IMG/VR virus record: IMGVR_UViG_3300037421_000080
Coordinates: 1 to 42,085 of that record
DNA length: 42,085 nt
Reading direction: 5' to 3' (one strand)
From: a virus
Lineage: Duplodnaviria; Heunggongvirae; Uroviricota; Caudoviricetes
Part shown: positions 2,150 through 16,387 of the stretch, in pieces
How the letters are laid out: each line of letters begins with the position of its first letter
How positions within the stretch are numbered: the first letter of the stretch is position 1
The notes under the pieces: model-generated
What the model saw: only the letters and a program-made list of their open reading frames with translations
Told to the model about the DNA's origin: nothing
Databases searched by the model: none
Position numbers and translations under genes: made by a program

Positions 2150-2150
2150 A

Positions 2151-2687
2151 ATGAGAGCTGTCATTATCACTGACCAAGGTGTTCAAGACGAGGAGTATAT
2201 TTACCCGTACTATCGTCTGCAAGAGGCGGGGATTCAAACAATCTCAGCAACCAAGAACGGGAAGCCGTGCTGTGGCAAGTACGGCATTCCCGTCAATGTC
2301 GTGGCGTCTACTATGGATCTTAGCGTGGAGGAGTATGATATCGTTATCATTCCCGGCGGGTGGGAAGCCCCGGAGCGGGTGCGACAGGACGAATACGTAA
2401 TGACATTCTTGCGAAGCATGAACTCAATGGGCAAAATCATCGGTGCCATCTGCCACGGCCCCGCCGTCCTCATCTCCGCTGGGATTGTCAAAGGCAAGAC
2501 GATGACCTGTTATAAAGGCATGAAGGATGACCTGATGAATGCGGGGGCGATCTACGTGGATTCAAGCGTGGTGGTACACGGGAACATTGTTACGGCCCCG
2601 CACTATCGGAATTGCCCGGACTTCATGATGGCAGTCCTGGCGACATTCGAGGGTAGGAAGCATCTATCGGAGCTGGTGCTGGCATGA
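2151..2687 (+). CDS. DJ-1/PfpI family protein (type 1 glutamine amidotransferase-like)
   Basis: DEEYIYPYYRL, IIPGG and AICHGP motifs; ATG 2 nt after the previous stop. Confidence 0.9.
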   Translation: MRAVIITDQGVQDEEYIYPYYRLQEAGIQTISATKNGKPCCGKYGIPVNVVASTMDLSVEEYDIVIIPGGWEAPERVRQDEYVMTFLRSMNSMGKIIGAICHGPAVLISAGIVKGKTMTCYKGMKDDLMNAGAIYVDSSVVVHGNIVTAPHYRNCPDFMMAVLATFEGRKHLSELVLA

Positions 2688-3316
2688 AATCCGTCACAAT
2701 CCAAAAGCCCTGGGGCTCCGAGTATCTGCTCTACCAGAACGAGCATCTGGGGATATGGCACCTCAAAATCAATCCCGGTGCTCAGACTTCCTTTCATTGC
2801 CACCCCAACAAGAAGACGGGGTTCATGGTGATGGATGGGACGGCTATAGTGTCCTTTATGAATGGGACTCGCGTGTTGCACCCCGGCGAGAAGGTTATGA
2901 TCCATAAAGGGGTGTTTCATTCTACCGCAGCGTACAATGCGGCGAAGCCTGGCGCTGTTGGAGTGGAATTGCTGGAGGTGGAGTCCCCCAACGACAAGGA
3001 CGACATTGTGCGGCTGGAGGATATTTATGGACGTGTGGATAGCCCCTTCATTGACAACAAACAATTGGAAGAACAGCCAAGTTTGGGATTAGTCTCCAAG
3101 ATTGGCAAGTGTACCCTGACCTACTGGCATTACGATAAATACAAACAGGTTCAGAATAGGCATCCGTCCAACCTGCTGATCCTCGAAGGCACGATGAGTT
3201 ACAAGGGCCGGATCATCTCCACGCCGGGCGACGTGCTGGACGACGTATCCTTTGGTCGTTTGGCATCTAGGTTCGACTGCACCCCGATGGAGCTTCTGGA
3301 GATAAGAGTAGGTTAG
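2684..3316 (+). CDS. Cupin-domain protein (mannose-6-phosphate isomerase type II-like)
   Basis: KPWGSE, TSFHCHPNK, VFHST and LEVESP motifs; ATGA overlap with the upstream gene. Confidence 0.75.
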   Translation: MKSVTIQKPWGSEYLLYQNEHLGIWHLKINPGAQTSFHCHPNKKTGFMVMDGTAIVSFMNGTRVLHPGEKVMIHKGVFHSTAAYNAAKPGAVGVELLEVESPNDKDDIVRLEDIYGRVDSPFIDNKQLEEQPSLGLVSKIGKCTLTYWHYDKYKQVQNRHPSNLLILEGTMSYKGRIISTPGDVLDDVSFGRLASRFDCTPMELLEIRVG

Positions 3317-3332
3317 ATGTGGAATTAAGCGC

Positions 3333-3662
3333 ATGGGCCTTCAACCAAACTATGAACCGATGACCATTAAAGAGCTCATCAGGCACGATCGGTGCCGTCC
3401 ATTCATACATGGACGAATACTTAGTATTCAAGGCTTACTAGAGCATACGCTTAAAAGCTGGTCGAGCAATGGTCGTCTGTTCAAATGGATTGAATCTGAG
3501 TGCAAGTTCAATGCTTGGCATTGTTGGTCCACCAAGTTGTCTACTGATGTAATGCTTTTGTTTGGACACTCCCCGTTTCAGGATAATGCAGACTTCGGTG
3601 GATGCAACCAATATTTTTGGATTTCCGTGGATGCGTTCAGGAGCATCTTTAGAGAGATATAG
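3333..3662 (+). CDS. Hypothetical protein
   Basis: Fills the gap between co-oriented genes; no recognisable motif. Confidence 0.5.
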   Translation: MGLQPNYEPMTIKELIRHDRCRPFIHGRILSIQGLLEHTLKSWSSNGRLFKWIESECKFNAWHCWSTKLSTDVMLLFGHSPFQDNADFGGCNQYFWISVDAFRSIFREI

Positions 3663-3663
3663 T

Positions 3664-4512
3664 TTGAACGATGACCAACTGAGAAAGGTATTCGAGCTGA
3701 CCTGCCGATGTCGCTACTTCGAGCTGGGGGCAGCCCAGGCCATTCGCGACAAGCGGATCAAGATTCCTACCTACCTCTCTGTGGGGCAGGAGCACATAGC
3801 GGCTACGCTTGCTGTCGCCCTGGAGGGATGGCCTGTATTCGCCCAGCATCGCTGCCATTCCTACTTTCTTTCTTGGGGAGGATCTCCAGAGCTGTTAGCG
3901 AAGGAACTGCTGGGTCGGGGCGATGGGTGCAACGGCGGGATGGGAGGCTCAGCGTCCATCAGCATCCCCGGCCGCATGTTCGGTCACTCCGGCCTTCTGG
4001 GCGACCAAGTGCCTATCGGGGTCGGCTACGCCTTCGCTAGCGGGAAGCCGACTCTGGTCGTATGCGGAGATGCGGCTGTTGAGGAGGACTATGTGCTGGG
4101 GGCTCTGGGGTTCGCAGCGACTCACAAGGCTCCGGTGCTTATCGTGGTGGAGGACAACGGGCTCTCCATCCTGACGGACAAGAAGATGAGGCGGTCGTGG
4201 GACGTAGTTAGCGTGGCCGAGAGTTTTGGGATCGGTGCCGATGATTTGCCGGACGATCCAGAAATGATCTATGATGCAGTCGATTCCTTTAAGGATTACT
4301 TGCCTCAGTTGTTAAACATTTACACCCACCGTCATCTTTGGCATCAGGGGGCGGGGAAGGACAATGAGCCGCCCTACGATCGGCTGGAGGAGATGAGGAA
4401 GCAAACGCCTCCAGGATCTCTTTATTGGATAGAGCAACCTATTCAGGGCAAAATGAACAAACTATGGGGTCACTTGCTAACACAATCCGATCTACAACCC
4501 GCCAGCACTTGA
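3664..4512 (+). CDS. TPP-dependent dehydrogenase E1 alpha-like subunit
   Basis: TYLSVGQE, QHRCH, GMGGS and the TPP-binding GDAA...EDN motif; TTG start 2 nt after the previous stop. Confidence 0.85.
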   Translation: MNDDQLRKVFELTCRCRYFELGAAQAIRDKRIKIPTYLSVGQEHIAATLAVALEGWPVFAQHRCHSYFLSWGGSPELLAKELLGRGDGCNGGMGGSASISIPGRMFGHSGLLGDQVPIGVGYAFASGKPTLVVCGDAAVEEDYVLGALGFAATHKAPVLIVVEDNGLSILTDKKMRRSWDVVSVAESFGIGADDLPDDPEMIYDAVDSFKDYLPQLLNIYTHRHLWHQGAGKDNEPPYDRLEEMRKQTPPGSLYWIEQPIQGKMNKLWGHLLTQSDLQPAST

Positions 4513-5366
4513 TGTCTGGGGGTTCTCTCTACGCCCAGAACGTCACCGCCGTGGGTTGGGTGGGGAACACCGTCCCCAGCGACCTTCCAGGTAACAAAGG
4601 CATCGTGGAGCTGCCTACTTCCGACTGCTCTAACCCTGGCATCGTGGTGGGGGCAGCCCTTGCCGGCCAGCGTCCCATCTACATCATTCGCTACCAAGGC
4701 TTCCTCTGGTACAATCTAGCTACCTTGGTCAACTACGCCGCCAAGAGCAAGGAGATGTGGAAGACGCCATGCCCCATCTTCATCCGTGCTCTGGCGATGG
4801 AGGGCGGGATGGGGCCGGTTGCCGGGAACCTGCACCACTCGATGGCGATGCGGATGCCGGGAATCAAGGTGGCTGCCCCCATGACTCCGGGAGAGTGGAA
4901 GCAAGTGTGGGACGAGTTCATGGTGGGGGACGACCCGGTTCTTTGCAGCGAGAGCCGCCTGAGCTTTGGGATTGACTACGAGATGGGGGGTGAATATGTG
5001 CCAGGGGCCAAGGTGACGATTTTTGCTATTGGGACGGCTAGGTTGAGTACGGAGCGGAATTGCCATCTCGATGTGCCTTGCAACTTATTTGAAGTAGTAT
5101 GGCTAAAGCCCAGCAGGTTTCCGGATGGAGCTATTCGCTCGTTGAAAGGAAGCGAGTTCGGCGTCGTAGTGGATGGCGACTATGAGACCTGCGGGGCGTC
5201 CTGATCGTTGGCCTACGAGCTGATGCACCTGTCGGGCAAGCCGGTCTACGCCTTCGGGCTGGGGGGCCGGACGGCGGGGTTCTCGGAGGATATGGATAAC
5301 AAGACACCTTCTGCCAAAAGGATCGTGGAGTTCGTTCGCTCCTGCACGAAGGAAAACCATTTATGA
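4464..5366 (+). CDS. TPP-dependent dehydrogenase E1 beta / transketolase-C-like subunit with an in-frame TGA at 5202-5204
   Basis: ELPTSD, GAALAGQRPI, PGIKVAAP and VVVDGDYETCG motifs. The same frame continues for 53 codons past the TGA with plausible C-terminal sequence and ends in an ATGA overlap with the next gene. Confidence 0.8.
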
Positions 5367-6121
5367 GTTTGGCAATATTTATTTCCTATTGTGGGGACCA
5401 TCTGAAGGCCGTTGCCCCATACGGATTTGAAGCGGCATCCGGATCAACTCCAGGCAGTGCATATCTGCCAGCTTCTTTGCACGCCAGGATGCTGGAGGAC
5501 ACGGTAAAATATCTGTATACCGATTGCACTTGCACCTCCGTGAATGCCGCGACATTTATTTGTGCATCGAGGTTCCGGGGGTTTGATGTGGAGGATCCAG
5601 GAGAGAGAAAGCGCCTATGGGAAATATCCCGCTTTGCCAGGTTCGTCACGACTTCCAAAATGCTCAATCATACGGATGGGGCTTGCTGGGCAATTGGTAT
5701 GGCTATTGAGGCAGCATCAGAGCTAGGGTTTGAGCGCATGATCTTCACAGCGGAGGATGTCATTCTTCCCAGAGGACTTGTTGCAAAGGTGGCGGAGCAT
5801 TTACTGTCATCTGATTATTGCGGCACTATCTGGGGAAACTCCAAGGAGAATTTGAATGCTCAAGTTTTCGGCTGTCGGGTAGAGCCATTTGCAAAGCTGT
5901 TTCCTGCCTATAAGAATACCAGCCTAGCGCAGGATGACGAAGGGGTTCCTATAATCGACGTGGAAGTGTGCCTGCGAAGACTGGTCAGGGAGAACAGGCT
6001 GCGGGAGAGGCTGATGGATGCTCCGTGCTATATGCACACACACAACCCCCAGGACCACCACAGAATAATACGTCACCAGCTGGGGGCTGGGGCCTGCCAG
6101 TTGCTAAGGATTGAGGAATGA
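5363..6121 (+). CDS. Hypothetical protein, possibly GT-A-fold-like
   Basis: Coupled to both neighbours by ATGA overlaps; MIFTAEDVIL resembles a DxD-type strand. The function call is weak. Confidence 0.55.
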   Translation: MSLAIFISYCGDHLKAVAPYGFEAASGSTPGSAYLPASLHARMLEDTVKYLYTDCTCTSVNAATFICASRFRGFDVEDPGERKRLWEISRFARFVTTSKMLNHTDGACWAIGMAIEAASELGFERMIFTAEDVILPRGLVAKVAEHLLSSDYCGTIWGNSKENLNAQVFGCRVEPFAKLFPAYKNTSLAQDDEGVPIIDVEVCLRRLVRENRLRERLMDAPCYMHTHNPQDHHRIIRHQLGAGACQLLRIEE

Positions 6122-6810
6122 CTACCGCTGAGTACGTCGATCTGTTTAGGGATTGCCAGAAGGAGGATCTTCGCGAGCGGGACTATCTGCATCTCCTCCT
6201 CTCTCGCATGAGCTTCAACACATGGAGCAATGCTCATCCATCGGGGCAGGACGATCCCATTATAGAGGAGCATGGTCTATGCATGTCGCAGTACCCTTCC
6301 CAGTTTGCATCATATCTGCTCCATGTGCTTGGACTCGATCTTCCTATCAAGACTTACATCGAGTTGGGTGTGGATAAAGGAGGATCGTTCGTCGCCACGG
6401 TGGAGTTTTTCAGGCATTTTAACGGAGAGATACGAGCGACTGGAGTAGACCCATTAGGGATTCATCCGAACTTGGTGGAATATGGTCATCTACAGAGATT
6501 CACCTATGTTCAGCGATCCTCCACGGATCCAGAGTTCAAGAGATCCCTCTCGAATCAAAAGTTTGACCTATGCTTCATCGACGCTGTCCACGACTATGCG
6601 AGCGTATCCCACGACTTCGGTTTGATGGCCGACTATGCTCGAATCATTGCCTTCCACGATGTATGCGGCCCTGTGACCCCAGGCTCTTGCCAGCTGTGGT
6701 CTGAGATCAAGAGCAAATTCCCGATACGGTGCCATGAATGCGTTGAGCAATACTACTCGCACACCAAACGCTTTGGCATCGGTGTTTTTGTGAACGACTA
6801 TCGGCTGTGA
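6118..6810 (+). CDS. Class I SAM-dependent methyltransferase (Methyltransf_24-like)
   Basis: YIELGVDKGGS, GVDP, DLCFIDAVHDY and IAFHD motifs. Confidence 0.85.
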   Translation: MTTAEYVDLFRDCQKEDLRERDYLHLLLSRMSFNTWSNAHPSGQDDPIIEEHGLCMSQYPSQFASYLLHVLGLDLPIKTYIELGVDKGGSFVATVEFFRHFNGEIRATGVDPLGIHPNLVEYGHLQRFTYVQRSSTDPEFKRSLSNQKFDLCFIDAVHDYASVSHDFGLMADYARIIAFHDVCGPVTPGSCQLWSEIKSKFPIRCHECVEQYYSHTKRFGIGVFVNDYRL

Positions 6811-6823
6811 AAGGAGCCTCGGC

Positions 6824-8668
6824 ATGGTTGAGCTAGCCGTAGTCAAATCCCAGAAGCACTACAACCACGTCTACGAGGCGAACGAGGCGACGGACGAGAT
6901 TCTGTCTGCCCTGACCCGCAAGATCGAGAAGGTATTCGGCGGCCGTCCCTGCAAGCGGATCTTGATGGTCCAGTGCCCGCAGATCAAGCAGGAGATATTC
7001 CATTGGGAGAACGCACGCCTCCGCCGCTACCCCTGCTTCCCGCCCTACGGTCCCGGCCTCCTCGTCCGAGTGCTGGAGCAGAACGGATACATTGCCGATC
7101 TAATCAACCTAGACTACGAGGTGATCGACCATGCCCATCGGACCCCCTGCGAGTATTTCCAGTACGATGTCTGGAAGCCGATACTTTCCACCGCTATCCA
7201 AAGCTTCAAGCCGCATCTGATCGGTGTCAGTTGCATGTTCAACAACAGCCACTCCGGGCTCAAGGACGTGGTCTCTTTCGCAAAGACATGCTTCCCCAAC
7301 ATCCCCGTTGTGGCAGGGGGCGTTCACATATCCCTGACCACGGACCAGGTTCTGGAGGACATCCCCCAGCTCGACTTCGCCATGCTTTACGAGAGCGACC
7401 AGAGCTTCATCAACTTTCTCGATGTCGTGAATGGTAAGCGATGCCCCGAGGAGTTGGCTCAGATCGCCACGGTTGATGATGACAGGATTATCAAACTGAC
7501 CAAGCGCCTTCTACCAGAAGATCTCCCCTACTCGCCCGATTACAAGGAACTGCCGATAGCGAAGTACGCCTCCGTGGGCAAGATCGGGGCCTACACCTTC
7601 CTGCGGCCCGAGGGCACTCCTGCCGCTACAGTCCTCTCCGCTCGTGGCTGCCGCGCCAAGTGCAGCTTCTGCTCCGTCCGCAGTGTATACGGGCCGGGTG
7701 TCCGGGTGCGGGACTATGTCGAAGTAGTGGACGAGGTGGAGCGGCTCCACAAGGTCTACGGCATCAAGCACATCATGTGGCTAGACGATGACCTGTTCTA
7801 CAACGCCCGGCGGGCTGTGGAGATGTTCGAGGAGCTAGCCTCCAGGAAGTTGAGGATCACATGGGACGCTTCTAACGGCATCATCGCCGCTGCGTTGACG
7901 GAGAGGCTGCTGAAAGCGTGCGAGGATTCCGGGTGCATCGGATTCAATTTGGGTATCGAGTCGGGCAACCCCCAGATGCTTCTGGAGATGAAGAAGCCGG
8001 GTACGGTTGAGACGTTCCGGCGAGCGGCAAAGTTGCTGGAGAAGGCTCCGTCCATTTTTGTGAAGGGATTCCTCGTTATCGGCTTCCCCAACGAGACCCT
8101 CCAGATGATGCAGGATACGATCAATCTATGCCTGGAGCTGGGATTGGATTGGTATCCAATCCAGATTTTGACCCCCATGCCGGGGACGCCCGTGTTCCAA
8201 TTGATGCAGGACCAAGGCATTCTGGGAGACATCCCCACCACGGTGCTAGGGAAGGCACGTTCGTTCACGGTCGGGGCCACGGGCAGTCTCGGTATGCGGG
8301 AGCGGGCTGAGAAGGAGCAGGCCAGGGACTTCAAGAACATCTTCTCCGGCGACCTGTCCCGCATCCCGGATAGATCCGAAATGGAAGACATCTACTTCGC
8401 GATGGACCATGAGATCAACTACAAGTCGATCCTGACCACGACAGACAAGGCGAGGCTCATCAAGAAGCAGCTGATGCTTGAAGAGATCTGCAACAAGATG
8501 ACAAGAGAGAATGCCCTGGGCACGCTGTACTTGGCGGAGGCCGTGCGGAGGCTGGGACATAATAAAAGAGCGGATGAATTGAATCGCCTGGCGAAGCAGT
8601 ACCGAGATGAGTCCGCCTTCTGGCAGAAGCGGTTCGATGTCCTTGGATTGGATGGGTTGCTGAAATGA
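6824..8668 (+). CDS. B12-binding radical SAM enzyme
   Basis: N-terminal PPYGPGLL / PHLIGVSCMF / VVAGGVH cobalamin-binding-type region; SARGCRAKCSFC; DDDLF, LGIESG, GFLVIGFPNET. Confidence 0.9.
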   Translation: MVELAVVKSQKHYNHVYEANEATDEILSALTRKIEKVFGGRPCKRILMVQCPQIKQEIFHWENARLRRYPCFPPYGPGLLVRVLEQNGYIADLINLDYEVIDHAHRTPCEYFQYDVWKPILSTAIQSFKPHLIGVSCMFNNSHSGLKDVVSFAKTCFPNIPVVAGGVHISLTTDQVLEDIPQLDFAMLYESDQSFINFLDVVNGKRCPEELAQIATVDDDRIIKLTKRLLPEDLPYSPDYKELPIAKYASVGKIGAYTFLRPEGTPAATVLSARGCRAKCSFCSVRSVYGPGVRVRDYVEVVDEVERLHKVYGIKHIMWLDDDLFYNARRAVEMFEELASRKLRITWDASNGIIAAALTERLLKACEDSGCIGFNLGIESGNPQMLLEMKKPGTVETFRRAAKLLEKAPSIFVKGFLVIGFPNETLQMMQDTINLCLELGLDWYPIQILTPMPGTPVFQLMQDQGILGDIPTTVLGKARSFTVGATGSLGMRERAEKEQARDFKNIFSGDLSRIPDRSEMEDIYFAMDHEINYKSILTTTDKARLIKKQLMLEEICNKMTRENALGTLYLAEAVRRLGHNKRADELNRLAKQYRDESAFWQKRFDVLGLDGLLK

Positions 8669-9084
8669 AAAGACATTGCGACATCTGCGGTGGGGATATG
8701 GAAAGTCCTTGCTCCCATGTAGGTTGCGAGGAAGAACAGACTGTGACGTACTCCGAAGACCTACTCGAAGTTCAGATGCTGAGAGATGCTCTGGAGAAGC
8801 GAGACAAGGAAGCGAATGAGGAAGGGCTCAAGAACGTTGAGCTGATGAAGCAGCTCGCCGCTTTCAACTGGTCCCCGAAGACTCGCGGAGCTGTTGAAGC
8901 TGGCTCCATCGAGAGCGGCTTGATTGGTTGGCGGAATAGATGCCTCTCTGCTGAGGGCAAGCTGAAAGCTGTTCTGGAGGAGCTGGCTCTGGTGCGTGAG
9001 AAGGAGACATCTCACCGCTTGCTAGTGGAAGGTATCTTGGGCAGGAAACCAACGGAACAAGAACTGTTGGAAGGGAAAGTATGA
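8665..9084 (+). CDS. Hypothetical coiled-coil protein
   Basis: Overlap-coupled to both neighbours; N-terminal CxxC. Confidence 0.55.
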   Translation: MKRHCDICGGDMESPCSHVGCEEEQTVTYSEDLLEVQMLRDALEKRDKEANEEGLKNVELMKQLAAFNWSPKTRGAVEAGSIESGLIGWRNRCLSAEGKLKAVLEELALVREKETSHRLLVEGILGRKPTEQELLEGKV

Positions 9085-10202
9085 AGAGAATCGAATTCGG
9101 CAGCTGGGTATGTAACGAAGCATCTGAAAGGCACGTGTTGAATTGCCTTCATTGCGGTTGGATCAGCCAGGGATTGATGGTTGCTGGCTTCGAGGAGAAA
9201 TGGCGGGAGACCTTCGGCTACAAGCATGCCAGAGCTATGTCCTCCGGCACAGCAGCACTGACGGCTTGCTGCATGGCCCTCTACGACTTCGCTCCAGACG
9301 ATGACAATGAGATCATCTGTCCTGCCCTCTCCTTCATCGCCACAGCCAACGCTATCCGAGCAGCGGGATACACGCCTAAGTTCGTGGATGTAAAACTGGA
9401 GACCATGAACATCGATGAGGACAAGATTGAAGAAGCGATAGGCCCCCAGACGGCAGGCATTGTGGTCGTCAACCTGATGGGCAAGCCAGCGGAGCTAAAG
9501 AAGATATGGAATCTCGCTGAGAGCCTGGGTCTCTATGTCATTTGCGACAACTGCGAAGGCTACGGCTGCACCCACCACGGGAAGTACAGCCTAGAGTACG
9601 CTGATATGGAGGTCTCAAGCCACTATGCCGCCCACCTTATCTGCTGCGGGGAGGGCGGAGTTGCTAGTACCAACAACGACCTTATCGACGAATCTCTGGA
9701 GTCCATCCGCAACCACGGCAGGGAGGCGGGCTCCGATTACTTCGACCACGCCCGCTGGGGCATGAACTTCAAGATGTCCGACCTGCACGCCGCTGTGGCC
9801 TTGGGGGGTATCGAAGACTTCTGGAAGGTCTTTGAAAGACGTTGTTTGAACGTATTTTATTTGAGGGAATGTATGAGGGGGTTGGAGGACAAGGCTTGGT
9901 TCAAGGAGGAGGAGCCACACGATGTGAACTGCCCACACGCTTTTTCCATTACGCTCAAGCCACCGTACAAGGACAGGATAGGAGACTTCCAAAAGTGGCT
10001 CGATATCGCCTCCATTCACTGGAAGCGGAACTTCGGCTGCATCCCGAAGCATGAGGCGTTCGCCTACCGGGAATGGGGCAGCTTTCCCAATGCGGAGTAC
10101 ATCGGAGACCACGGGATCCACGTTGGTTGCCATCAATATCTAAGCGATGGCGACCTGGAGTATCTGGGCGGAACTATCAAGAAGTTTCTGGAGGAAATAT
10201 GA
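9081..10202 (+). CDS. DegT/DnrJ/EryC1/StrS-family PLP/PMP enzyme, His-variant (ColD/RfbH-like 3-dehydratase)
   Basis: SSGTAAL, PALSFIATAN, DNCEGYG, SHYAAHLICCGEGG and NFKMSD. His stands where the Schiff-base Lys is usual. Confidence 0.82.
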   Translation: MKRIEFGSWVCNEASERHVLNCLHCGWISQGLMVAGFEEKWRETFGYKHARAMSSGTAALTACCMALYDFAPDDDNEIICPALSFIATANAIRAAGYTPKFVDVKLETMNIDEDKIEEAIGPQTAGIVVVNLMGKPAELKKIWNLAESLGLYVICDNCEGYGCTHHGKYSLEYADMEVSSHYAAHLICCGEGGVASTNNDLIDESLESIRNHGREAGSDYFDHARWGMNFKMSDLHAAVALGGIEDFWKVFERRCLNVFYLRECMRGLEDKAWFKEEEPHDVNCPHAFSITLKPPYKDRIGDFQKWLDIASIHWKRNFGCIPKHEAFAYREWGSFPNAEYIGDHGIHVGCHQYLSDGDLEYLGGTIKKFLEEI

Positions 10203-10357
10203 CTAAGAAGGAGCTGCTGGAGAAGTTGGTTGGCTTTCCTGATGATGCCAAGATAGGTATTTACGATGGAGAGTACGACGAAGTGTACGAGTTGACCAAG
10301 GTGTACAAATCCGATGACACTCGAAATGATGACGAGTGTAATGTAGTGTTGAGATAG
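10199..10357 (+). CDS. Small hypothetical protein
   Basis: GAGG RBS and ATGA overlap with the upstream gene. Confidence 0.55.
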   Translation: MTKKELLEKLVGFPDDAKIGIYDGEYDEVYELTKVYKSDDTRNDDECNVVLR

Positions 10358-10367
10358 AGGAGACTTG

Positions 10368-10568
10368 ATGTACCTTCTGGTCGCAAAAGAGCACCGAACG
10401 GGAGGAGATCCGGGCTCGAAGTTCAGTCTGTTGACTATAGTTGAGGATTTAGGGGAGGCAAAGAAACAACAGGATTTTTGGGAGAAGTGGGCGAATCCTG
10501 TTTTGTATTACACGGATGTCCGCATTTTGTGGGCTACAGAAGTGGTAGGAATGAAGGAGGCAAAATGA
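10368..10568 (+). CDS. Small hypothetical protein
   Basis: GAGGAG RBS; coupled to the next gene. Confidence 0.5.
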   Translation: MYLLVAKEHRTGGDPGSKFSLLTIVEDLGEAKKQQDFWEKWANPVLYYTDVRILWATEVVGMKEAK

Positions 10569-11131
10569 GTGAAAAATCAGACTTCCATGCGGAATTGGTT
10601 CAGCTGGTGAGTAAGTATGGACTTGCGATGAAGGAGAGGCGTTCGTCTTTGGAGACCGATCCGATATGGGATAGAACGATGTACGTTCTAAACGAAGTAT
10701 GCAGAGAAAACAAGGAGGATCGCAAATATCTTCCTTCTCTCGGTGATCTGATTGACCGCCTCTCCATCGACCAAATCAAGGAACTGCTAGACCCCGAGCG
10801 GAAGGCCCTTCACGCCCAGCACATCAAGGATTTGATGCACGACATTGACTTGATCTTGGCTGACTACCTTTTCAACAAGAGCACGGTCATTAGTTCCGCT
10901 GCTTTCCTCCGGGCCGTCATTGTCCTGGCTTTAATAAATCGTGAGATCTGGTTGAACGAAGCATCAGTTCGATCTGGCACCAAAGGTGAGTCAAACCTGC
11001 TCTTAACTCATGGATTGAATACAATAAGATGCAAAGCGAAGAACAAGATCAACGAGGCCGTTGGTGGGCCTATCGACCAGAAGGTAGATGTGGTACTTCC
11101 TCCTCCTAATTGGATCCCTGATGGGTATTAA
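10565..11131 (+). CDS. Hypothetical protein, DUF6165-like helical domain
   Basis: SLGDLIDRLSIDQIK ... LINREIWLNEASVR resembles small proteins I recall next to phage glycosylation genes. AAGGAGG RBS. Confidence 0.5.
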   Translation: MSEKSDFHAELVQLVSKYGLAMKERRSSLETDPIWDRTMYVLNEVCRENKEDRKYLPSLGDLIDRLSIDQIKELLDPERKALHAQHIKDLMHDIDLILADYLFNKSTVISSAAFLRAVIVLALINREIWLNEASVRSGTKGESNLLLTHGLNTIRCKAKNKINEAVGGPIDQKVDVVLPPPNWIPDGY

Positions 11132-11134
11132 CTG

Positions 11135-12058
11135 GTGACTGTACCCCCTCTGACCTTTTTGTACTACAGTTTTCGGCCCGGCGGGATCGACCTCCTTGTG
11201 AAATCCCTTGCATCCCAGACGATGAACAGCTTCGAGCTGATCGTGGTGGACGACTACCCTGGCCGGGTGGAGCGGGGCCTGGCCCGCAAGTACGCCGAGG
11301 AGGCAGGGATCAAGGTCCGTTGGTGGGGCGTCTCCAAGCCCAAGAGCTACCCAGAGACCAAGTGCGGCGGAGTCAACGCTGTCAACACAGGATTGATCCA
11401 CGCTTGCACACCGATCGTCTGCTTTGTGAATGATTACACCTTCTTGGCTCCAGACGCCGTCCAGATTGTGAAGAACATATTTGTGGTTGAGTGGCTTATG
11501 GGGGCGAGGTTCCTCCTGCATGGGGCATCTATGATATACGACTCTGATAAGCCTCTAACCCAGGACGATGTAGATACGTGGCCCGGTGGTCAGGATCCAA
11601 ACATCCGTCCCATGCGTCCCCATGTGCCCAAGGAGTTCGAGGGCTATTACTTCATGGGGCAGATAGGGTTCTTCGAGTTGATCAACGGATTCGACGAGAG
11701 GTCGGACGACTGCGGCCCCTGGAACCTGACCAGCCTCATCGCCCAGGCAAAGCTGACGGGCTGGGGCCTGAGAGTCTGCGATTCCCTCGTGATCCACATG
11801 ATCGACCACCGGAGATGGGGCGGATGGTCCCCTGGCCTGGCCACCAAGGACTCGATGTGGCGCACTGACGACCATCATACCTCCGGGGAAGCTGCCGAGG
11901 AGCCAGAGTGGCTGGCCCAGTCTCCTAATCCCTACAACCTTGCGGATCTTCGGATGTTGTCCAGGACCAAGGCGGATCTGGCGGAGGGCAGGGATGTGTA
12001 TCCCCATCTGAGGCTAGCGTATGCCGGGCTATCCTCCGAATGCAAGGAGGCTTTGTGA
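11135..12058 (+). CDS. Glycosyltransferase family 2 (GT-A fold)
   Basis: LVKSLASQT, FELIVVDD, AVNTGL, CFVNDYT and INGFDE motifs; GTG start. Confidence 0.8.
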   Translation: MTVPPLTFLYYSFRPGGIDLLVKSLASQTMNSFELIVVDDYPGRVERGLARKYAEEAGIKVRWWGVSKPKSYPETKCGGVNAVNTGLIHACTPIVCFVNDYTFLAPDAVQIVKNIFVVEWLMGARFLLHGASMIYDSDKPLTQDDVDTWPGGQDPNIRPMRPHVPKEFEGYYFMGQIGFFELINGFDERSDDCGPWNLTSLIAQAKLTGWGLRVCDSLVIHMIDHRRWGGWSPGLATKDSMWRTDDHHTSGEAAEEPEWLAQSPNPYNLADLRMLSRTKADLAEGRDVYPHLRLAYAGLSSECKEAL

Positions 12059-12168
12059 AAGGCGCCTGCTGGGCAGCCAACGGCGGAGACATGGAGTTCC
12101 TGACCCTCCAGGAGACCTTCCGCAAGTGCTATGACGGCGATCCGCACTGGAACCGCATCTTCGAGTGA
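12055..12168 (+). pseudogene. Orphaned original 5' end (37 codons) of the methyltransferase at 13356
   Basis: AAGGAGG RBS and GTGA overlap. Encodes MKGACWAANGGDMEFLTLQETFRKCYDGDPHWNRIFE, about 22/38 identical to the N-terminus at 13356, and stops at the tnpB element edge. Confidence 0.88.
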
Positions 12169-12240
12169 TTACTCTCTAGCCGAAGCTAGAGCTTTTAGGG
12201 ATTGAACCCACAGCTTGTAATCCCAAGCTGAGTATGTTGC
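12145..12240 (-). ncRNA. Predicted 3' part of the TnpB omega/reRNA plus flank-derived guide
   Basis: Minus strand: CAGCUU-GGGAUUAC-AAGCUG hairpin whose loop can pair with downstream AAUCCC (pseudoknot), then CUCUAGC-UUCG-GCUAGAG, AGUAAUCAC and the flank. The true 5' end probably lies further inside tnpB. Confidence 0.7.
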
Positions 12241-13468
12241 AGGCAGCATTATGGTCCCTGTCATAGCTAAGCTCGCAGCACTCGCAGGTGAAAGTTCTGA
12301 TGGAAACAGGCATCTTCTGCCTGTATCCACAATTGTGGCAAGTCTGCGAAGTGTAAGCGGGGTTCACTCTCACAATAGTTCTACCAGCTTCTACCGCTTT
12401 GTAGAACAGAAGAGTGAAGAACAGAGACCAAGCTACGTCGTCAATACTTTTCGAGAATTTCCTGACCTTTCTCATTCGGTTGACTTGAAGATCCTCAACG
12501 GCGATGAAACCAAAATCGTTGATGATTCTTCGAGAAGTCTGATGAGCAAAGTTTTGTCTGCGAAAGCGAATTCGTTCATAAATTCGAGAGACTGGTTTTC
12601 TAAGCTTTTTCCTCTCCGGAGTTCCTTTCTTCACTTTTTCAAGCTTTTTCTGGGCTTTGGCAAGTTCTTTTTCGTCCGTTTTAAAAAACCTCTTCCTCTT
12701 AATCTTTTCTCCGTTCGAGAGGGCGGCAAAGCAATTCAGTCCTACGTCAATGCCTACTTGTTCTTTGCTCTTTGGAAGGGGTTTCGGTACGGACAGATCG
12801 CAAGTGAGATTGGCGTACCATTTGCCGGTGGAGGATCGGCGGATAGTACAAGTTTTGAGATCACCTCTCAACTTTCTATGCAGATTTATTTTAACATCTC
12901 CAACATTGTGAAGTTGAAGAACACCCCCTTCGAGATAACAACCCCTTGGAGCTTGTGGGAACGTCATGCTGTCGTAGCGGCTAAACTGTTTGAATCGGGG
13001 ATACCCAGGCTTCTCCCCCGCTTTGGTTCTTCGGAAGAACGCTTTGAATGCAAGATCGACACGAAGACAGACATTCTGGAGACATTGTGCAAAAACTGTT
13101 TTTAGAGAGGGTCGTCGTTCTTTCAAAGAAGGAAGGGTTTTGTCCTGATCGTAGCGATTGATCCCTTTACCTGTAGCTTTGTACGTATCCCTTCGCTCTG
13201 CAAGAAAGTGGTTGTAGAGCCAACGACACTCCTCCAGCTGGGCATCGAGCTTCTTCCTTTGGCTCTTGGTGGGATACAGACGATATTGAAAGGTTTTGAG
13301 CATTCTTATATAGTAACTAAATGGATCTGTTAGATAAAGAGCAAAAGTATTAGCTATGAAAAGTTGTTGTTGGGTGAGTGAAGGTGGTGGAGATTCGGAA
13401 TTCGTAAGGCTTCAAAAAGCAATGATGCAGTGTTATGATGGTGACCCACATTGGAGTAGATGCTTCGA
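12165..13468 (-). mobile_element. IS200/IS605-derived tnpB-only element (no tnpA) carrying a recoded gene start
   Basis: tnpB with a right-end hairpin ending ...GAGTAATCAC on the minus strand. TTCGAGT occurs at both junctions (12160-12166 and 13464-13470), so the exact boundary is uncertain by about 2 nt. Confidence 0.75.
12176..13303 (-). CDS. tnpB: RNA-guided endonuclease TnpB (IS200/IS605 OrfB)
   Basis: N-terminal FQYRLYPT HTH; RuvC acidic triad GIDVG / AVEDL / DRDHNAA; CHNC...CECC zinc finger. Confidence 0.95.
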   Translation of the reverse strand: MLKTFQYRLYPTKSQRKKLDAQLEECRWLYNHFLAERRDTYKATGKGINRYDQDKTLPSLKERRPSLKTVFAQCLQNVCLRVDLAFKAFFRRTKAGEKPGYPRFKQFSRYDSMTFPQAPRGCYLEGGVLQLHNVGDVKINLHRKLRGDLKTCTIRRSSTGKWYANLTCDLSVPKPLPKSKEQVGIDVGLNCFAALSNGEKIKRKRFFKTDEKELAKAQKKLEKVKKGTPERKKLRKPVSRIYERIRFRRQNFAHQTSRRIINDFGFIAVEDLQVNRMRKVRKFSKSIDDVAWSLFFTLLFYKAVEAGRTIVRVNPAYTSQTCHNCGYRQKMPVSIRTFTCECCELSYDRDHNAACNILSLGLQAVGSIPKSSSFG

Positions 13469-14090
13469 GTACCCCTGGATGGTGCGGAACGGGAACTTCC
13501 GATTGACAGATGAGGTACTGGACGCGGGTGGTGGGCAGGCATCGGGCCAGCTGTTTCTCGCGGCCTATGCAGGTAAGGTTGTCAACGTAGACAACGACGT
13601 GGCCAGCCTTGCCAAGACGAAGGAGATGTACGCTGGCTTCAAGAAGTTCCAGAAGGTGGAGCTGGTGGAGGGAGATCTGAAAGATCTGTCCATGTTCCCG
13701 GACGGCAGGTTCGACAAGGTGGTCTGTATCTCGGTGCTGGAACACGATCCGGATTACATGTTGATATTGAAGGAATTGTGGCGGGTATTGAAACCGGGCG
13801 GTAGGCTGCTGGTGACGATGGACGTGGCAACCTTCTCCGCCAGCGATCATTTGATTACCGACAGGGAAGCAGCCAGGATTTTGTGCCTGTTCGGCATGGA
13901 TACATTGCCTCCTATCCCGGAGGATGCCATCGTCTGCCAGGCTCCGTCGGACGCTTCTCCCGAAGGTATCCTTCTTGCCTACGGCATCCCGAACAGGGGA
14001 AAGATGATCCGGAAGATCTTCGAGACAGAAGTCGATGTTGGCTTCTACTGCCTGAAGGTTTTGTGCTTCTTCGCGGACAAGATGGAGTAA
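13356..14090 (+). CDS. Class I SAM-dependent methyltransferase (Methyltransf_11-like) with replaced N-terminus
   Basis: FEYPW, VLDAGGG, FDKVVCISVLEH and RVLKPGG motifs. The first ~37 codons are AT-richer than the rest. Confidence 0.88.
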   Translation: MKSCCWVSEGGGDSEFVRLQKAMMQCYDGDPHWSRCFEYPWMVRNGNFRLTDEVLDAGGGQASGQLFLAAYAGKVVNVDNDVASLAKTKEMYAGFKKFQKVELVEGDLKDLSMFPDGRFDKVVCISVLEHDPDYMLILKELWRVLKPGGRLLVTMDVATFSASDHLITDREAARILCLFGMDTLPPIPEDAIVCQAPSDASPEGILLAYGIPNRGKMIRKIFETEVDVGFYCLKVLCFFADKME

Positions 14091-14094
14091 ATCA

Positions 14095-14289
14095 ATGTCT
14101 GATATCGTGGCAGGGACTGGGGTGTTAGAACAAGGCATCAAAGAAGCACTTGAGATAACAGACAACTTTGTCAACGATCTTATCAAGCGAGGCTACCCGA
14201 TCCACGAGCAGGCATTCCCGATGAGGTGTTTGGAGAATCAGAGGGTAATCCTCGCCGCCCTGTCCCACCTCATCCAGCAAAGGAAGTAA
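14095..14289 (+). CDS. Small hypothetical protein
   Basis: Closely spaced co-oriented ORF. Confidence 0.5.
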   Translation: MSDIVAGTGVLEQGIKEALEITDNFVNDLIKRGYPIHEQAFPMRCLENQRVILAALSHLIQQRK

Positions 14290-14292
14290 AAT

Positions 14293-14556
14293 ATGACCAA
14301 GGAAGAATCAGCCGCAGGGCTTAGGGAGAAAGCGCGAATACTGGAGGAGTGTGCTTTGCGCGTTCGCATTCGTGCGGAAGAATTAGCTAAGGAGTTTGAA
14401 AAGAGGGCCACTGACTTCAGGTCGATGGCGGCAGCGACATTGCAGACGTACTGCGGACCTCCCGCAGGACACATGCAGGAGTCGGGCACGAACCACTGCT
14501 ACTGCGGAAGTCTACTGTTCGACGGCAACGTGATCTCGCTCAAAAAGAGAGAGTAA
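14293..14556 (+). CDS. Small hypothetical protein
   Basis: Closely spaced co-oriented ORF. Confidence 0.5.
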   Translation: MTKEESAAGLREKARILEECALRVRIRAEELAKEFEKRATDFRSMAAATLQTYCGPPAGHMQESGTNHCYCGSLLFDGNVISLKKRE

Positions 14557-14557
14557 A

Positions 14558-16387
14558 ATGATCGACATCAACAAGAAGGAAGGCCAGAAGATCCTTGAGC
14601 TGGGCGGCGGTATGAACCGACACCCTGCTTCAGATGTAAACCTCGACTGCCGTGCCGGCCCCGGAGTGGACATCGTTTGCGACCTTAACAAGGGCCCTCT
14701 TCCCTTCCTGGATGCAAGCTTCGATGCGGTGTTATGTGTCTATGCGCTGGAACATTGCTCGTACCGACGTGTGCCCGCGATTCTTCGAGAGACCTGGCGG
14801 GTGTTGAAGCCGGAGGGGAAAGCGATATTCCTCGTCCCCAACACAGAGGCTCAGATTGAATGGATCAAGACCCATCCGGAGGGCTGGGACAAGGAGAGTT
14901 TTTTCGAGTCGGCAAGCAAGGTACTGATGGGGAGCCAGGACTACTCAGAAAATTCGCATCGGATTTACCTAAGTCCTTCTCTGGTCTTCGACCTGTTCAA
15001 AGACGCGGGCTTCCAGTCGATCCAGGTCGCGGCTGCTGGTGAGAGGCAGACTGACCTCTCCATCGTCGCATCCAAGCCGGATTGGGTCAATCCGCCGATC
15101 CCCATCGAGCCTGCCCAGCCGATCAGAGAAGCAGAGCCTCAACCCACGGTGGTGGAGCAGGAATCTGCCATCTCCGGGATTCCCACGGAGCAGATTTTCG
15201 ACCGCCATTACTTCACGGGCGGAGGACGATGCGGCGGGTACGCGAGGGAGGGGATGCGGGATTTCGCCTGCCACGAGACGACGGCTCGATATGTGCTAGT
15301 CCGTAAGCCCGAAAGCGTCCTGGAAATTGGATGCGGGCGTGGTTATATCATGAAGAGACTGCAAGACGCAGGGGTTCGATGCACTGGACTGGAGGTCTCG
15401 AAACATTGCAATTTGACTGCTGCCGCGAGGGGGATAATCCAGCACGATATCCTGAAAACTCCGTGGCCTCTGACCTTCCGGAAGGATGGTGGGGAGGATC
15501 ACCGCTGGGATCTCTGCCTCTCTGTCGCCACTCTAGAACACATCCCCGAATCCGCACTCCCAGCTATCCTCGGCGAGATGAGTCGCTGCACGAAGCGAGG
15601 CCTGCACGGAGTGGATTTCGGCCAGAAAGATGATGGCTTCGACAAGTCACACATCACGCTCAAACCCCAGAAGTGGTGGAGGGCCCTGTTCGATCACTAC
15701 GGTCTCCAGTCCCATGAGATCGTGGACAAGGAGTCCCTGGAGGCTGGCAATCTGCCTCCCGAGGTCCTGGCGGGCGACGGCAAGATCAAGCTGAATTGCG
15801 GCTGCGGGATGAACATGTTCCACCACGGCTGGACCAACGTCGACCTCAACAAGGACCTGGAGCAGTTCTCTGGACCGCAGGGCTACCGCTTCCTCCGTAG
15901 GGACCTGAGACGAGGCATCCCCTATGCCACGGGGACGGTGGACCTGATCTTCGCCAGCCTCTTCCTGGAGCATCTAAGCTATCGGGAGGGAGAGACGTTC
16001 CTCAAGGAGTGCAGGCGGGTGTTGAAGCCGGATGGAGCCTTGCGGATTGTGGTGCCGAACGCGAAGGCACTGATTGATCACTATGTCTACGGTGGTGACT
16101 ACGAGTATGGCACGGAGCCTCCCAGGAACAGGCTCTTTGACTTCGACGAGATGGACGAAGCTTGCTCTAACCATTCTACTCCCGTTGGCAAGCTCCATGC
16201 TCTCCTCTGCGAAGGGCATGCCTCGATCTATGACTACGATCTTCTCGCTGGGATGATTTCGGAAGCGAAGTTGAAGCCAGAAGTGAGATCCTTTCGGGAG
16301 GGGCACTCCCAGATCCTCCACGAGACGGTGGAGTCGTACCAGGGCGGGACATCTCTGTTTGTGGACGCAGTTCCAGTCGTGGGGTAA
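14558..16387 (+). CDS. Triple-domain SAM-dependent methyltransferase
   Basis: Three motif-I regions (ILELGGG, VLEIGCGRG, KLNCGCG), each followed by an ALEH/TLEH/FLEH motif. Confidence 0.82.
   Translation: MIDINKKEGQKILELGGGMNRHPASDVNLDCRAGPGVDIVCDLNKGPLPFLDASFDAVLCVYALEHCSYRRVPAILRETWRVLKPEGKAIFLVPNTEAQIEWIKTHPEGWDKESFFESASKVLMGSQDYSENSHRIYLSPSLVFDLFKDAGFQSIQVAAAGERQTDLSIVASKPDWVNPPIPIEPAQPIREAEPQPTVVEQESAISGIPTEQIFDRHYFTGGGRCGGYAREGMRDFACHETTARYVLVRKPESVLEIGCGRGYIMKRLQDAGVRCTGLEVSKHCNLTAAARGIIQHDILKTPWPLTFRKDGGEDHRWDLCLSVATLEHIPESALPAILGEMSRCTKRGLHGVDFGQKDDGFDKSHITLKPQKWWRALFDHYGLQSHEIVDKESLEAGNLPPEVLAGDGKIKLNCGCGMNMFHHGWTNVDLNKDLEQFSGPQGYRFLRRDLRRGIPYATGTVDLIFASLFLEHLSYREGETFLKECRRVLKPDGALRIVVPNAKALIDHYVYGGDYEYGTEPPRNRLFDFDEMDEACSNHSTPVGKLHALLCEGHASIYDYDLLAGMISEAKLKPEVRSFREGHSQILHETVESYQGGTSLFVDAVPVVG

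Follow-up and report, generated by a model that had tools for sequence, protein, structure and literature searches.

A TnpB cassette carrying a spare gene start within a phage methyltransferase gene: a candidate RNA-guided home-and-rescue element

How can a nuclease gene sit in a conserved stretch of a phage gene that still reads as a whole, and by what route could such an insertion spread? The question is raised by a lower-GC block of 1304 nt (12165-13468) located inside the SAM-methyltransferase gene of a 137-kb soil phage, within the window (the whole 42,085-nt stretch of phage DNA that was analyzed). Within the block lie an intact tnpB and a conserved guide-RNA scaffold, together with a second, diverged version of methyltransferase codons 1-38 (Table 1). 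It is present as a single copy in the phage genome, tnpB is the sole open reading frame with a family assignment between 12165 and 13468, and no site-specific recombinase gene was detected within that interval.

An earlier note on this DNA had described the methyltransferase start as occurring twice, on either side of an inverted tnpB, and all coordinates of this arrangement were confirmed. The first copy was found to be GC-rich, as described, with a GTG start codon overlapping the TGA that closes the GT2 gene upstream, a ribosome-binding site (AAGGAGG, 12044-12050), and a closing TGA (12166-12168) that is supplied by the right end of the element. The insertion separates the Glu codon from the Tyr codon in the conserved HWSRxFE-YPW motif, and the native start now lies beyond the right end of the element, cut off from the remainder of the gene. 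This remnant keeps the W6, H, W, R, F, and E of the methyltransferase family motif. Its sequence is undecayed.

Table 1. Features of the interrupted methyltransferase gene and of the cassette, in window coordinates.
Feature	Position	Strand	Remarks
Native methyltransferase 5' end (copy 1), stranded remnant	12055..12165	+	GC3 0.86, operon-like
Inferred 20-nt guide and target, TCGAAGATGCGGTTCCAGTG	12145..12164	-	Flank directly past the right end; encodes conserved H-W-N-R-I-F-E
Right end and 3' part of guide-RNA (omega RNA) scaffold	12165..12334	-	Three hairpins; overlaps tnpB 3' end; ends in AGTAATCAC at 12165
tnpB, 375 aa, intact	12176..13303	-	Pfam HTH_OrfB_IS605, OrfB_IS605, Cas12f1-like TNB domain; GC3 0.48
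Promoter-like site TTGAAA-17-TATAGT, facing out of the cassette toward the spare start	13286..13314	+	10/12 consensus matches; consensus match only
Foreign lower-GC copy of the gene's first 38 codons (copy 2, putative rescue 5' end)	13356..13468	+	GC3 0.35; 57% protein identity to remnant
Methyltransferase native remainder, in frame with the spare start	13469..14090	+	GC3 0.74

The second copy, or spare start, adjoins tnpB and occupies the place of a transposon left end. Its description in the earlier note as AT-rich and fused in frame to the rest of the gene held up, the frame being open to 14090, and it shares the lower GC of the cassette. The two copies are identical at 21 of 37 residues with a one-codon indel, and their nucleotide identity is 71% over 42 nt. 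By tblastn, the similarity of the flanks gave E-values of 1.5e-15 (560-nt subject) and 6e-12 (1-kb subject), compared with a best value of about 1e-3 for most other loci. The term synonymously recoded, as used earlier, is apt for the eight-codon CYDGDPHW block, in which six of the eight codons differ, at the third base only, but not for the whole 37/38 codons, given their protein identity of 57% and their one-codon difference in length. On both sides the homology breaks off at one codon, and the repeats are spaced 1304 nt apart, which is also the length of the block; this argues for one insertion. Furthermore, the spare start keeps every invariant residue of the family, its HWSRCFE being nearer to the family consensus than the HWNRIFE of the remnant. 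These comparisons indicate that the spare start is a foreign homologue, linked to the element and joined to the gene, in frame, precisely at the homologous codon.

The ribosome-binding site of the spare start is weak, and three promoter-like sites were found in the region where 1.1 were expected. The methyltransferase N-terminus is conserved across the family; in the AF2 model of the fused 244-aa enzyme (pLDDT 87) it is comprised of strand 2-6 and two helices, with the junction inside helix 35-46. Being family-conserved and, in the model, structural, the N-terminus is predicted to matter.

TnpB of the cassette matched ISDra2 TnpB with an E-value of 1e-62. The D/E/D triad noted earlier was recovered as the RuvC residues D186, E270, and D350, which are invariant in an alignment of 20 sequences together with four zinc-finger cysteines (CxxC..CxxC). 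The stems of the scaffold covary: of 17 predicted pairs, 15 show compensatory changes across 35 relatives, and all stems are intact in the window; no Rfam family matched the guide-RNA region at E-values up to 1 and no ribozyme was found. Alignment of 16-35 relatives placed the right end at 12165, and elements with identical ends in different flanks diverge directly after TCAC. The guide would therefore be the flank running leftward from 12164, the very sequence the earlier note had named. Allowing up to three mismatches, this sequence occurs nowhere else in the genome, and its motif window ranks 9 of 238 for conservation in the methyltransferase gene. Of the 20 guide positions, 7 (7-9, 11-13, and 18) are mismatched against the spare start, in agreement with the earlier count of six at positions 7-13, so that the spare start would mismatch the guide in its seed. 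From these features, the element reads as an intact TnpB and guide-RNA unit that has neither TnpA nor a left end.

The reported lack of a tnpA and of a left-end hairpin was borne out over the entire 136,935-nt record and by comparison with canonical relatives. No tnpA (PF01797) was found in the record with positive controls, the record being an estimated 79% complete and a host copy possible. Canonical relatives carry a left-end hairpin beside a TTAY target, exactly where the window has the spare start; no such hairpin was found in the window, nor in L022, L003, L184, or L185. A stretch inside the spare start, CTTAC followed by GAATTCC, was aligned by MAFFT to the left-end start of relatives and was rejected as a left end since the hairpin is missing. 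Taken together, the missing transposase and left end leave recombination as the only putative means of spread. The bases at 13469-13473 read GGTAC on the minus strand, a candidate adjacent motif of the empty site, and the reconstructed empty site is GGTAC followed by the guide. The earlier proposal of a motif near (G)GTAC thus agrees with the reconstruction, but GTAC differs from the motif of the family, which is TTAY and, rarely, CTAY (in L005 and probably in L188). The reading frame at this site is such that a functional gene cannot hold TTAY there.

To establish whether the design recurs, as the earlier note had suggested looking for, 180 related loci were scanned for flank duplication, yielding one other case (L022), with a duplicated 3' end and not a 5' end. 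The TnpB of L022 is the sister of that in the window (66% identical, tree support 0.97), and the locus lies in a phage Toprim primase gene as the mirror image of the window: ahead of tnpB lies a foreign 3' end of 108 codons, and the native primase 3' end starts at the right end of the element and is still coupled by ATGA to the gene that follows. L022 and the window carry the ends of different genes, and the motif adjacent to L022 is CCAC or ACAA. The guide window of L022 ranks 28 of 281 for conservation; both guides thus lie on highly conserved motifs of their genes, typical of homing targets. What is new here is that the closest TnpB relative repeats the design in mirror image in a primase gene. 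The other four members of the six-member clade lie between genes or at gene 3' ends and have no duplicate; L185, L188, and L189 were discarded as intergenic or end-of-gene insertions of this kind. Two further candidates were rejected. At L023, the two FHA genes flanking tnpB are separate complete genes and not duplicates, and at L002 a left-side 93-aa ORF is 34% identical to a gene about 600-890 nt past the right end, which does not abut the element, the two being read as paralogues. Outside IMG/VR, P0105 encodes a TnpB with 65% identity and, like tnpB in the window, is oriented divergently to a methyltransferase gene, there of 211 aa.

Based on this layout, it is on balance somewhat probable that 12165-13468 is one mobile cassette acting by RNA-guided home-and-rescue. 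The anatomy, the intact parts, the foreign spare start, the recurrence in the sister, and the position of the guides on conserved motifs are observed, and from them we infer that the guide RNA is expressed, that the empty allele is cleaved, and that the cassette homes. The cassette would have four parts, namely the TnpB gene, a guide-RNA scaffold that stops at the right end, a short promoter region, and the foreign 38-codon start. Its insertion in HWSRxFE-YPW would have severed the native start, and its own start, fused in frame, would keep the enzyme whole. A guide RNA that takes its guide from the stranded native start would match any element-free allele, directly after ..GGTAC, and the spare start would escape that guide by its 7 mismatches, of which 6 fall at positions 7-13. 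During co-infection TnpB would cleave genomes that lack the element, and repair from the carrier, with the native start and upstream genes as one arm and the gene remainder as the other, would copy in the whole cassette. An origin of the cassette itself by ordinary homologous repair on both sides, with a donor whose tnpB is intergenic, was considered and set aside, by reasoning only, as it fails to yield the precise right-end junction.

Several observations stand against home-and-rescue: no empty allele or donor was found, the motif is GTAC and not TTAY, expression signals are weak, and recurrence within the clade is incomplete. The earlier note had proposed finding related genomes with the empty allele, and none was recovered from IMG/VR, JGI metagenome contigs, a protein collection, or two soil runs. 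Neither an empty allele nor a donor was detected by megablast of 10400-15600 against GenBank phages, by scanning methyltransferase relatives in IMG/VR, by a degenerate DNA pattern for CYDGDPHW in IMG/VR, or by scanning JGI metagenome contigs for methyltransferase relatives, which gave one match only (33% identity). The exact 16-nt guide had 33 matches in IMG/VR, none with the flanking sequence, and these are chance matches. A search of 5.8 billion proteins returned a best methyltransferase homologue of 45% identity, with no close relative, empty allele, or donor. The stretch is present in two soil DNA runs, with no RNA run listed, and no joint skipping the cassette occurred in their contigs, which drop rare variants and are thus silent on a minority empty allele.

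Three other explanations of the locus were weighed. That the assembly joined two related phages at a repeated gene start is hardly credible, even if metagenome assemblies can join strains at repeats: the two copies, 71% identical over 42 nt, are too unlike to mislead an assembler, independent contigs from a second SRA run span the two junctions, and two JGI contigs from other samples contain the right one at 100% identity. The cassette is not an assembly artefact. A history of two events, in which an ordinary tnpB IS broke the gene and later illegitimate recombination with the methyltransferase of a lower-GC relative replaced the left end, would make the spare start a cis-compensation kept by selection and not cargo. 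The left-end hairpin of canonical relatives, located exactly at the place of the spare start, is consistent with such a history, as are the lower GC3 of the spare start than of tnpB (0.35 against 0.48), by which a common donor is not required, and the different gene ends in the window and its sister, by which each rescue would have been acquired separately. We nevertheless consider it unlikely, since two rare events at one site would be needed twice, in sister elements, a later patch gives no reason for the left junction to fall at exactly the codon of the right-end junction, and canonical TnpA insertion needs TTAY or CTAY, impossible in this reading frame.

The remaining alternative is that of an inert scar, left by one arrival through illegitimate recombination between phages and immobile since, with the wrong motif and hence no cutting, and either decaying or serving another role such as rival-phage interference or regulation. 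The departure of GTAC from the family motif, the single genome copy, and the failure to find either an empty allele or any polymorphism among four assemblies, each of which carries the element, are all in keeping with a scar, and TnpB relatives exapted for other roles are known. The intact state of TnpB, its catalytic residues, and all guide-RNA stems argues against a scar, however, as does the undecayed remnant; the design recurs in the sister element, and a random scar would not predict that both guides lie on conserved motifs. The scar is likewise judged to have a low probability.

More tentatively than for the single locus, and with rather less than even confidence, home-and-rescue may be extended to a class: phages may harbour left-end-less TnpB drives that home into the most conserved motifs of genes, each carrying a portable, cleavage-immune replacement for the displaced end, 5' or 3', and each with a guide that is renewed from the stranded native end and so retargets to each new host allele. 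Should TnpB indeed cleave the allele without the element, an RNA-guided nuclease could live in needed viral genes with no transposase, intron, or intein, which would explain the persistence of transposase-less, left-end-less tnpB genes in phages, and selfish nucleases would carry foreign gene ends between phages, giving rise to chimeric genes. The cassette would also offer a compact unit for phage engineering, with nuclease, guide, and rescue in about 1.3 kb.

Among published systems, the nearest precedent is the protein-guided mobile-ORF (mORF) gene hybrid found in fungal mitochondria and described for atp6 of Allomyces macrogynus and for atp6, atp9, cox2, and nad3 of Glomus (PMC3630166 and work cited there). 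Common to both are an endonuclease gene inside a conserved gene, a foreign in-frame duplicate of the displaced end, a native end persisting as an unexpressed remnant, and strongly diverged copies (63.5% nucleotide identity in Glomus atp6; PMC3630166). The gene-hybrid layout is found in the window and in L022, each with its target in a highly conserved stretch (ranks 9/238 and 28/281). The mORF endonucleases (LAGLIDADG, GIY-YIG) recognize DNA by protein, whereas the cassette would use a guide RNA read from the remnant. Furthermore, mORF hybrids always replace the 3' end, while the window cassette replaces the 5' end, in a phage, and must therefore also supply a start codon and promoter, making it the harder case.

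With the IS200/IS605 TnpB-omega RNA systems (ISDra2) the cassette shares the nuclease family, a scaffold over the tnpB 3' end, a right end in TCAC, and a flank guide (PMC8612924; 10.1101/2023.03.14.532601). According to a review (PMC13565253), PMC11870625 reports that IS605 can spread from one plasmid copy to another, driven by TnpB and with no need of TnpA, and homing independent of TnpA has been proposed for plasmids. The cassette differs from these elements in having no TnpA, left-end hairpin, or canonical TTAY, and in carrying instead a gene fragment that repairs the host gene; no report of a TnpB element with such a gene-end rescue was found in the literature searched. IStrons, which combine a group I intron with an IS605/IS607 tnpB, likewise place tnpB inside a gene that is not destroyed (PMC10690162, PMC4227781). 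They restore the gene by RNA splicing, in contrast to the cassette, which does so at the DNA level by a replacement exon.

A substitute gene end is also carried by e14 and phage 21 in icd and by tRNA-gene integrators, which leave the displaced end as a pseudogene. These rely on an integrase and att sites, unlike the cassette block, which has tnpB and no recombinase. Engineered homing drives with recoded rescue (home-and-rescue), like cleave-and-rescue drives, are synthetic constructs based on Cas9 in insects, and the cassette resembles both in directing an RNA-guided nuclease against a needed gene with a cleavage-immune replacement in cis. The recoding in the engineered drives is designed and synonymous, and the natural rescue here is a diverged homologue. 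The earlier name of cleave-and-rescue homing element captured the rescue design, which the sister repeats, but the nearer analogue is the homing drive with recoded rescue, since cleave-and-rescue drives do not home. Should TnpB cut the element-free allele, the cassette would be a natural counterpart of that engineered drive, built from the ancestor of Cas12.

The first 42 kb of this soil-derived, 136,935-nt IMG/VR virus record contain a class I SAM-methyltransferase gene that is split by a minus-strand tnpB and lies amid tightly coupled plus-strand genes for sugar and methyl transfer. The RuvC residues of TnpB (D186, E270, D350) and its four zinc-finger cysteines were invariant in an alignment with 19 relatives, and ISDra2 TnpB matched the window protein at an E value of 1e-62. 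The interrupted gene falls within a 16-kb block (8-16387) that carries genes for aminotransferase, GT2 and several methyltransferases and is adjoined by head genes; the block is likely a glycan- or DNA-modification pathway. Antisense to tnpB runs a 284-codon ORF (12251-13105, plus strand), and a translated reverse-strand ORF in tnpB of cyanophage A-1(L) has been described in a 2026 preprint (10.64898/2026.02.14.705889).

Coordinates of the split methyltransferase gene and of the related L022 locus (L022 positions are those of its own contig)
Feature	Position	Strand	Remarks
tnpB	12176-13303	minus	375 aa; three TnpB domains (Pfam)
Native start ORF	12055-12165	plus	37 codons; stop TGA 12166-12168
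Methyltransferase ORF with spare start	ATG 13356	plus	244 codons
L022 interrupted locus	2130-4510		tnpB in same orientation as phage Toprim primase gene

The methyltransferase start occurs on both sides of tnpB. The GTG at which the native start (left copy) begins overlaps the GT2 stop codon upstream, with AAGGAGG just before it; the spare start (right copy, 13356-13468) opens the methyltransferase ORF. The two are homologous (tblastn E 1.5e-15; 6e-12 in a wider scan) and share a 42-nt direct repeat (71% identical) whose starts lie 1304 nt apart. GC content falls from about 0.6 to 0.38-0.50 over 12170-13470. The left copy has a GC3 of 0.86 and the right copy one of 0.35; the values for tnpB and for the remainder of the gene are 0.48 and 0.74, respectively. 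The earlier note had described the right copy as synonymously recoded. All of its sequence statements hold, including six third-base differences in CYDGDPHW and seven guide mismatches, but taken whole the copies agree at only 21 of 37 residues and are one codon apart in length. Alignment and composition mark the right copy as a homologue that has diverged and stems from a source of lower GC. The earlier observation is confirmed, and its interpretation is supported in part.

To define the borders of the element, tnpB 3' ends were aligned, initially from 16 viral relatives and then from 35, yielding three common hairpins followed by AGT(A/T)(A/G)TCAC. Where the same element was present on different contigs (loci L007/L008 and L009/L010), the sequences part immediately past TCAC. 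Compensatory changes were found in 15 of 17 pairs (RNAalifold), and all three stems are kept in the window. Together, the alignment, the divergence past TCAC and the stems place the right end at 12165 and the predicted guide as the reverse complement of 12145-12164, the guide previously proposed. The terminal TCAC reads GTGA on the opposite strand and supplies a stop codon to a gene entering the right end, as in the window remnant and in a methyltransferase-like gene at locus L189 (1415-1417). The left end of canonical relatives comprises TTAY (L005 has CTAC and L188 probably CTAT), roughly twelve bases, a hairpin and GATGAA(A/T)G, 50-170 nt before the tnpB ATG. None of these features was found in the window, where the spare start fills their place, its ATG 52 nt from that of tnpB, and no Y1 transposase was found in the 136,935-nt record; the lack of a left-end hairpin and of tnpA had both been noticed earlier. 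The two copies cease to be homologous at one and the same codon, and the block is as long as the repeat spacing; this is most simply read as one insert, or cassette, of 1304 nt (12165-13468), placed between the codons for Glu and Tyr in ...FE/YPW.... Misassembly as the source of this arrangement is highly improbable, as two JGI contigs assembled from other samples match at 100% and 99.96% identity from the 5' part of tnpB through the right junction into the genes that follow, and contigs from a second SRA soil run span both the left (11495-12800) and right (12894-13786) junctions.

Alignment and structural modelling indicate that the methyltransferase gene needs the displaced N-terminal part. 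All of the 24 top-ranking homologues, whose aligned identity to the window protein does not exceed 46%, had the N-terminal W...HWSRxFEYPW region; W6, H32, W33, R35 and E38 were invariant and are all kept in the spare start, whose HWSRCFE is closer to consensus than the HWNRIFE of the remnant. The AlphaFold2 model (pLDDT 87, pTM 0.85) has a strand at 2-6 and helices at 14-26 and 35-46, the chimeric junction falling within the latter helix. Public gene calls begin the protein at Met42 (13479-14090, 203 aa, protein-collection match P0001), which would drop the conserved strand and two helices encoded by the spare start. A promoter-like TTGAAA-17-TATAGT (13286-13314), a consensus match only, is oriented to the spare start, and the ribosome-binding site of the latter is weak.

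In 180 related loci, 1 kb left of tnpB was compared at the protein level with 1 kb past the right end, and the one locus besides the window to stand out was L022, on a Logan contig of 9.7 kb (9673 nt); its TnpB is the closest relative of the window TnpB (66% identical; sister in two trees, support 0.97). Here the last 108 codons of the primase lie directly before the tnpB promoter and share 64% protein identity with 107 codons that start at the right end and retain an ATGA overlap with the next gene. Either copy is as close to database primases as it is to the other copy, so the copy before tnpB is foreign. The right end terminates in TCAA, not TCAC. The search suggested by the earlier note for other tnpB loci with a duplicated gene start did recover a duplicated gene end, albeit a 3' end; by these comparisons, L022 mirrors the arrangement in the window. 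At both loci the left-end side holds the replacement and the guide side the native remnant, and the guide lies over a conserved motif (HWSRxFE, rank 9 of 238 seven-residue windows, and KxLLYGE, rank 28 of 281, in the window and L022, respectively). Homing elements typically target conserved motifs. The clade has six members, and the remaining four are unlike these two: L185 and L188 are intergenic, L003 appears to be so, and L189 is at the very end of a gene.

Further arrangements were seen among the relatives. In L003 (3900-3990, 5129-5140), the relative next in line, the 8 bases past the right end (CTCTGAGC) are repeated about 45 nt before the tnpB ATG and may mark a left junction with only a promoter left of tnpB. 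In L184 (1700-1800, 3014-3036), a left-side stretch just after a TTAC (CCTTAC followed by CTAACCGGG) reappears as its inverted complement in the flank past the right end (TCCCGGTTAGGT..); the element looks as if it sits in a hairpin, perhaps a terminator. The TnpB of protein match P0105 (JGI 3300047160, 16,190 nt) is 65% identical to that of the window and divergent from a 211-aa Methyltransf_12/25 gene, with 103 nt from methyltransferase start to tnpB ATG and a layout as in the window.

The anatomy of the cassette fits an RNA-guided homing element, unable to transpose, that would carry a repair for the gene it splits. The predicted guide would be copied from the stranded native start. An element-free genome would present the matching sequence directly after ..GGTAC, while in a carrier the spare start follows the same motif with guide mismatches at positions 7-9, 11-13 and 18. 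If a co-infecting element-free genome were cut, it could be repaired from the carrier; the native start and upstream genes would serve as one repair arm and the rest of the gene as the other, and the whole block would be copied. Between plasmid copies, IS605 has been reported to spread in a TnpB-dependent manner that does not need TnpA (PMC11870625, according to its discussion in PMC13565253).

Homing with rescue is, in our assessment, a somewhat probable account of the locus, and several points weaken it. The family motif is TTAY, occasionally CTAY, and the window site is GTAC; TTAY would be a stop codon in this reading frame, so cleavage would require TnpB to tolerate another base at the first position of the motif. 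Any allele would read RTAY across its Glu-Tyr codons, and the L022 site (CCAC or ACAA) matches no version of the motif. The empty allele that the earlier note expected in related genomes, or a donor, was found in none of GenBank phages, IMG/VR, JGI metagenome contigs, the protein collection and two soil-run contig sets. Also counting against the homing account, reasoning yielded no ordinary recombination route to an original cassette whose right-end junction is this exact. A two-step origin, in which insertion was followed by compensation in cis, is unlikely. That the locus is an inert scar is similarly doubtful.

An endonuclease gene joined to a foreign in-frame gene end, with the native end stranded, is an established design in fungal mitochondrial mobile ORFs, e.g. 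Glomus atp6, atp9, cox2 and nad3, and the Allomyces atp6 cited there (PMC3630166). Those elements use LAGLIDADG or GIY-YIG endonucleases and replace only 3' ends, whereas the window cassette carries tnpB and replaces a 5' end. IStrons solve the same problem through splicing and integrase-type elements with att sites, neither of which is applicable to the cassette. Full-text searches pairing TnpB with homing, phages, co-conversion, insertion inside genes, gene drive and rescue turned up no TnpB element with gene-end rescue of this kind, and the consulted passages of a 2026 review that treats OMEGA systems as homing endonucleases (PMC13565253) describe none. The proposed combination of TnpB homing with gene-end replacement is new, both parts being known separately, and is distinguished by the replaced 5' end and by its mirror-image recurrence in the sister element L022.
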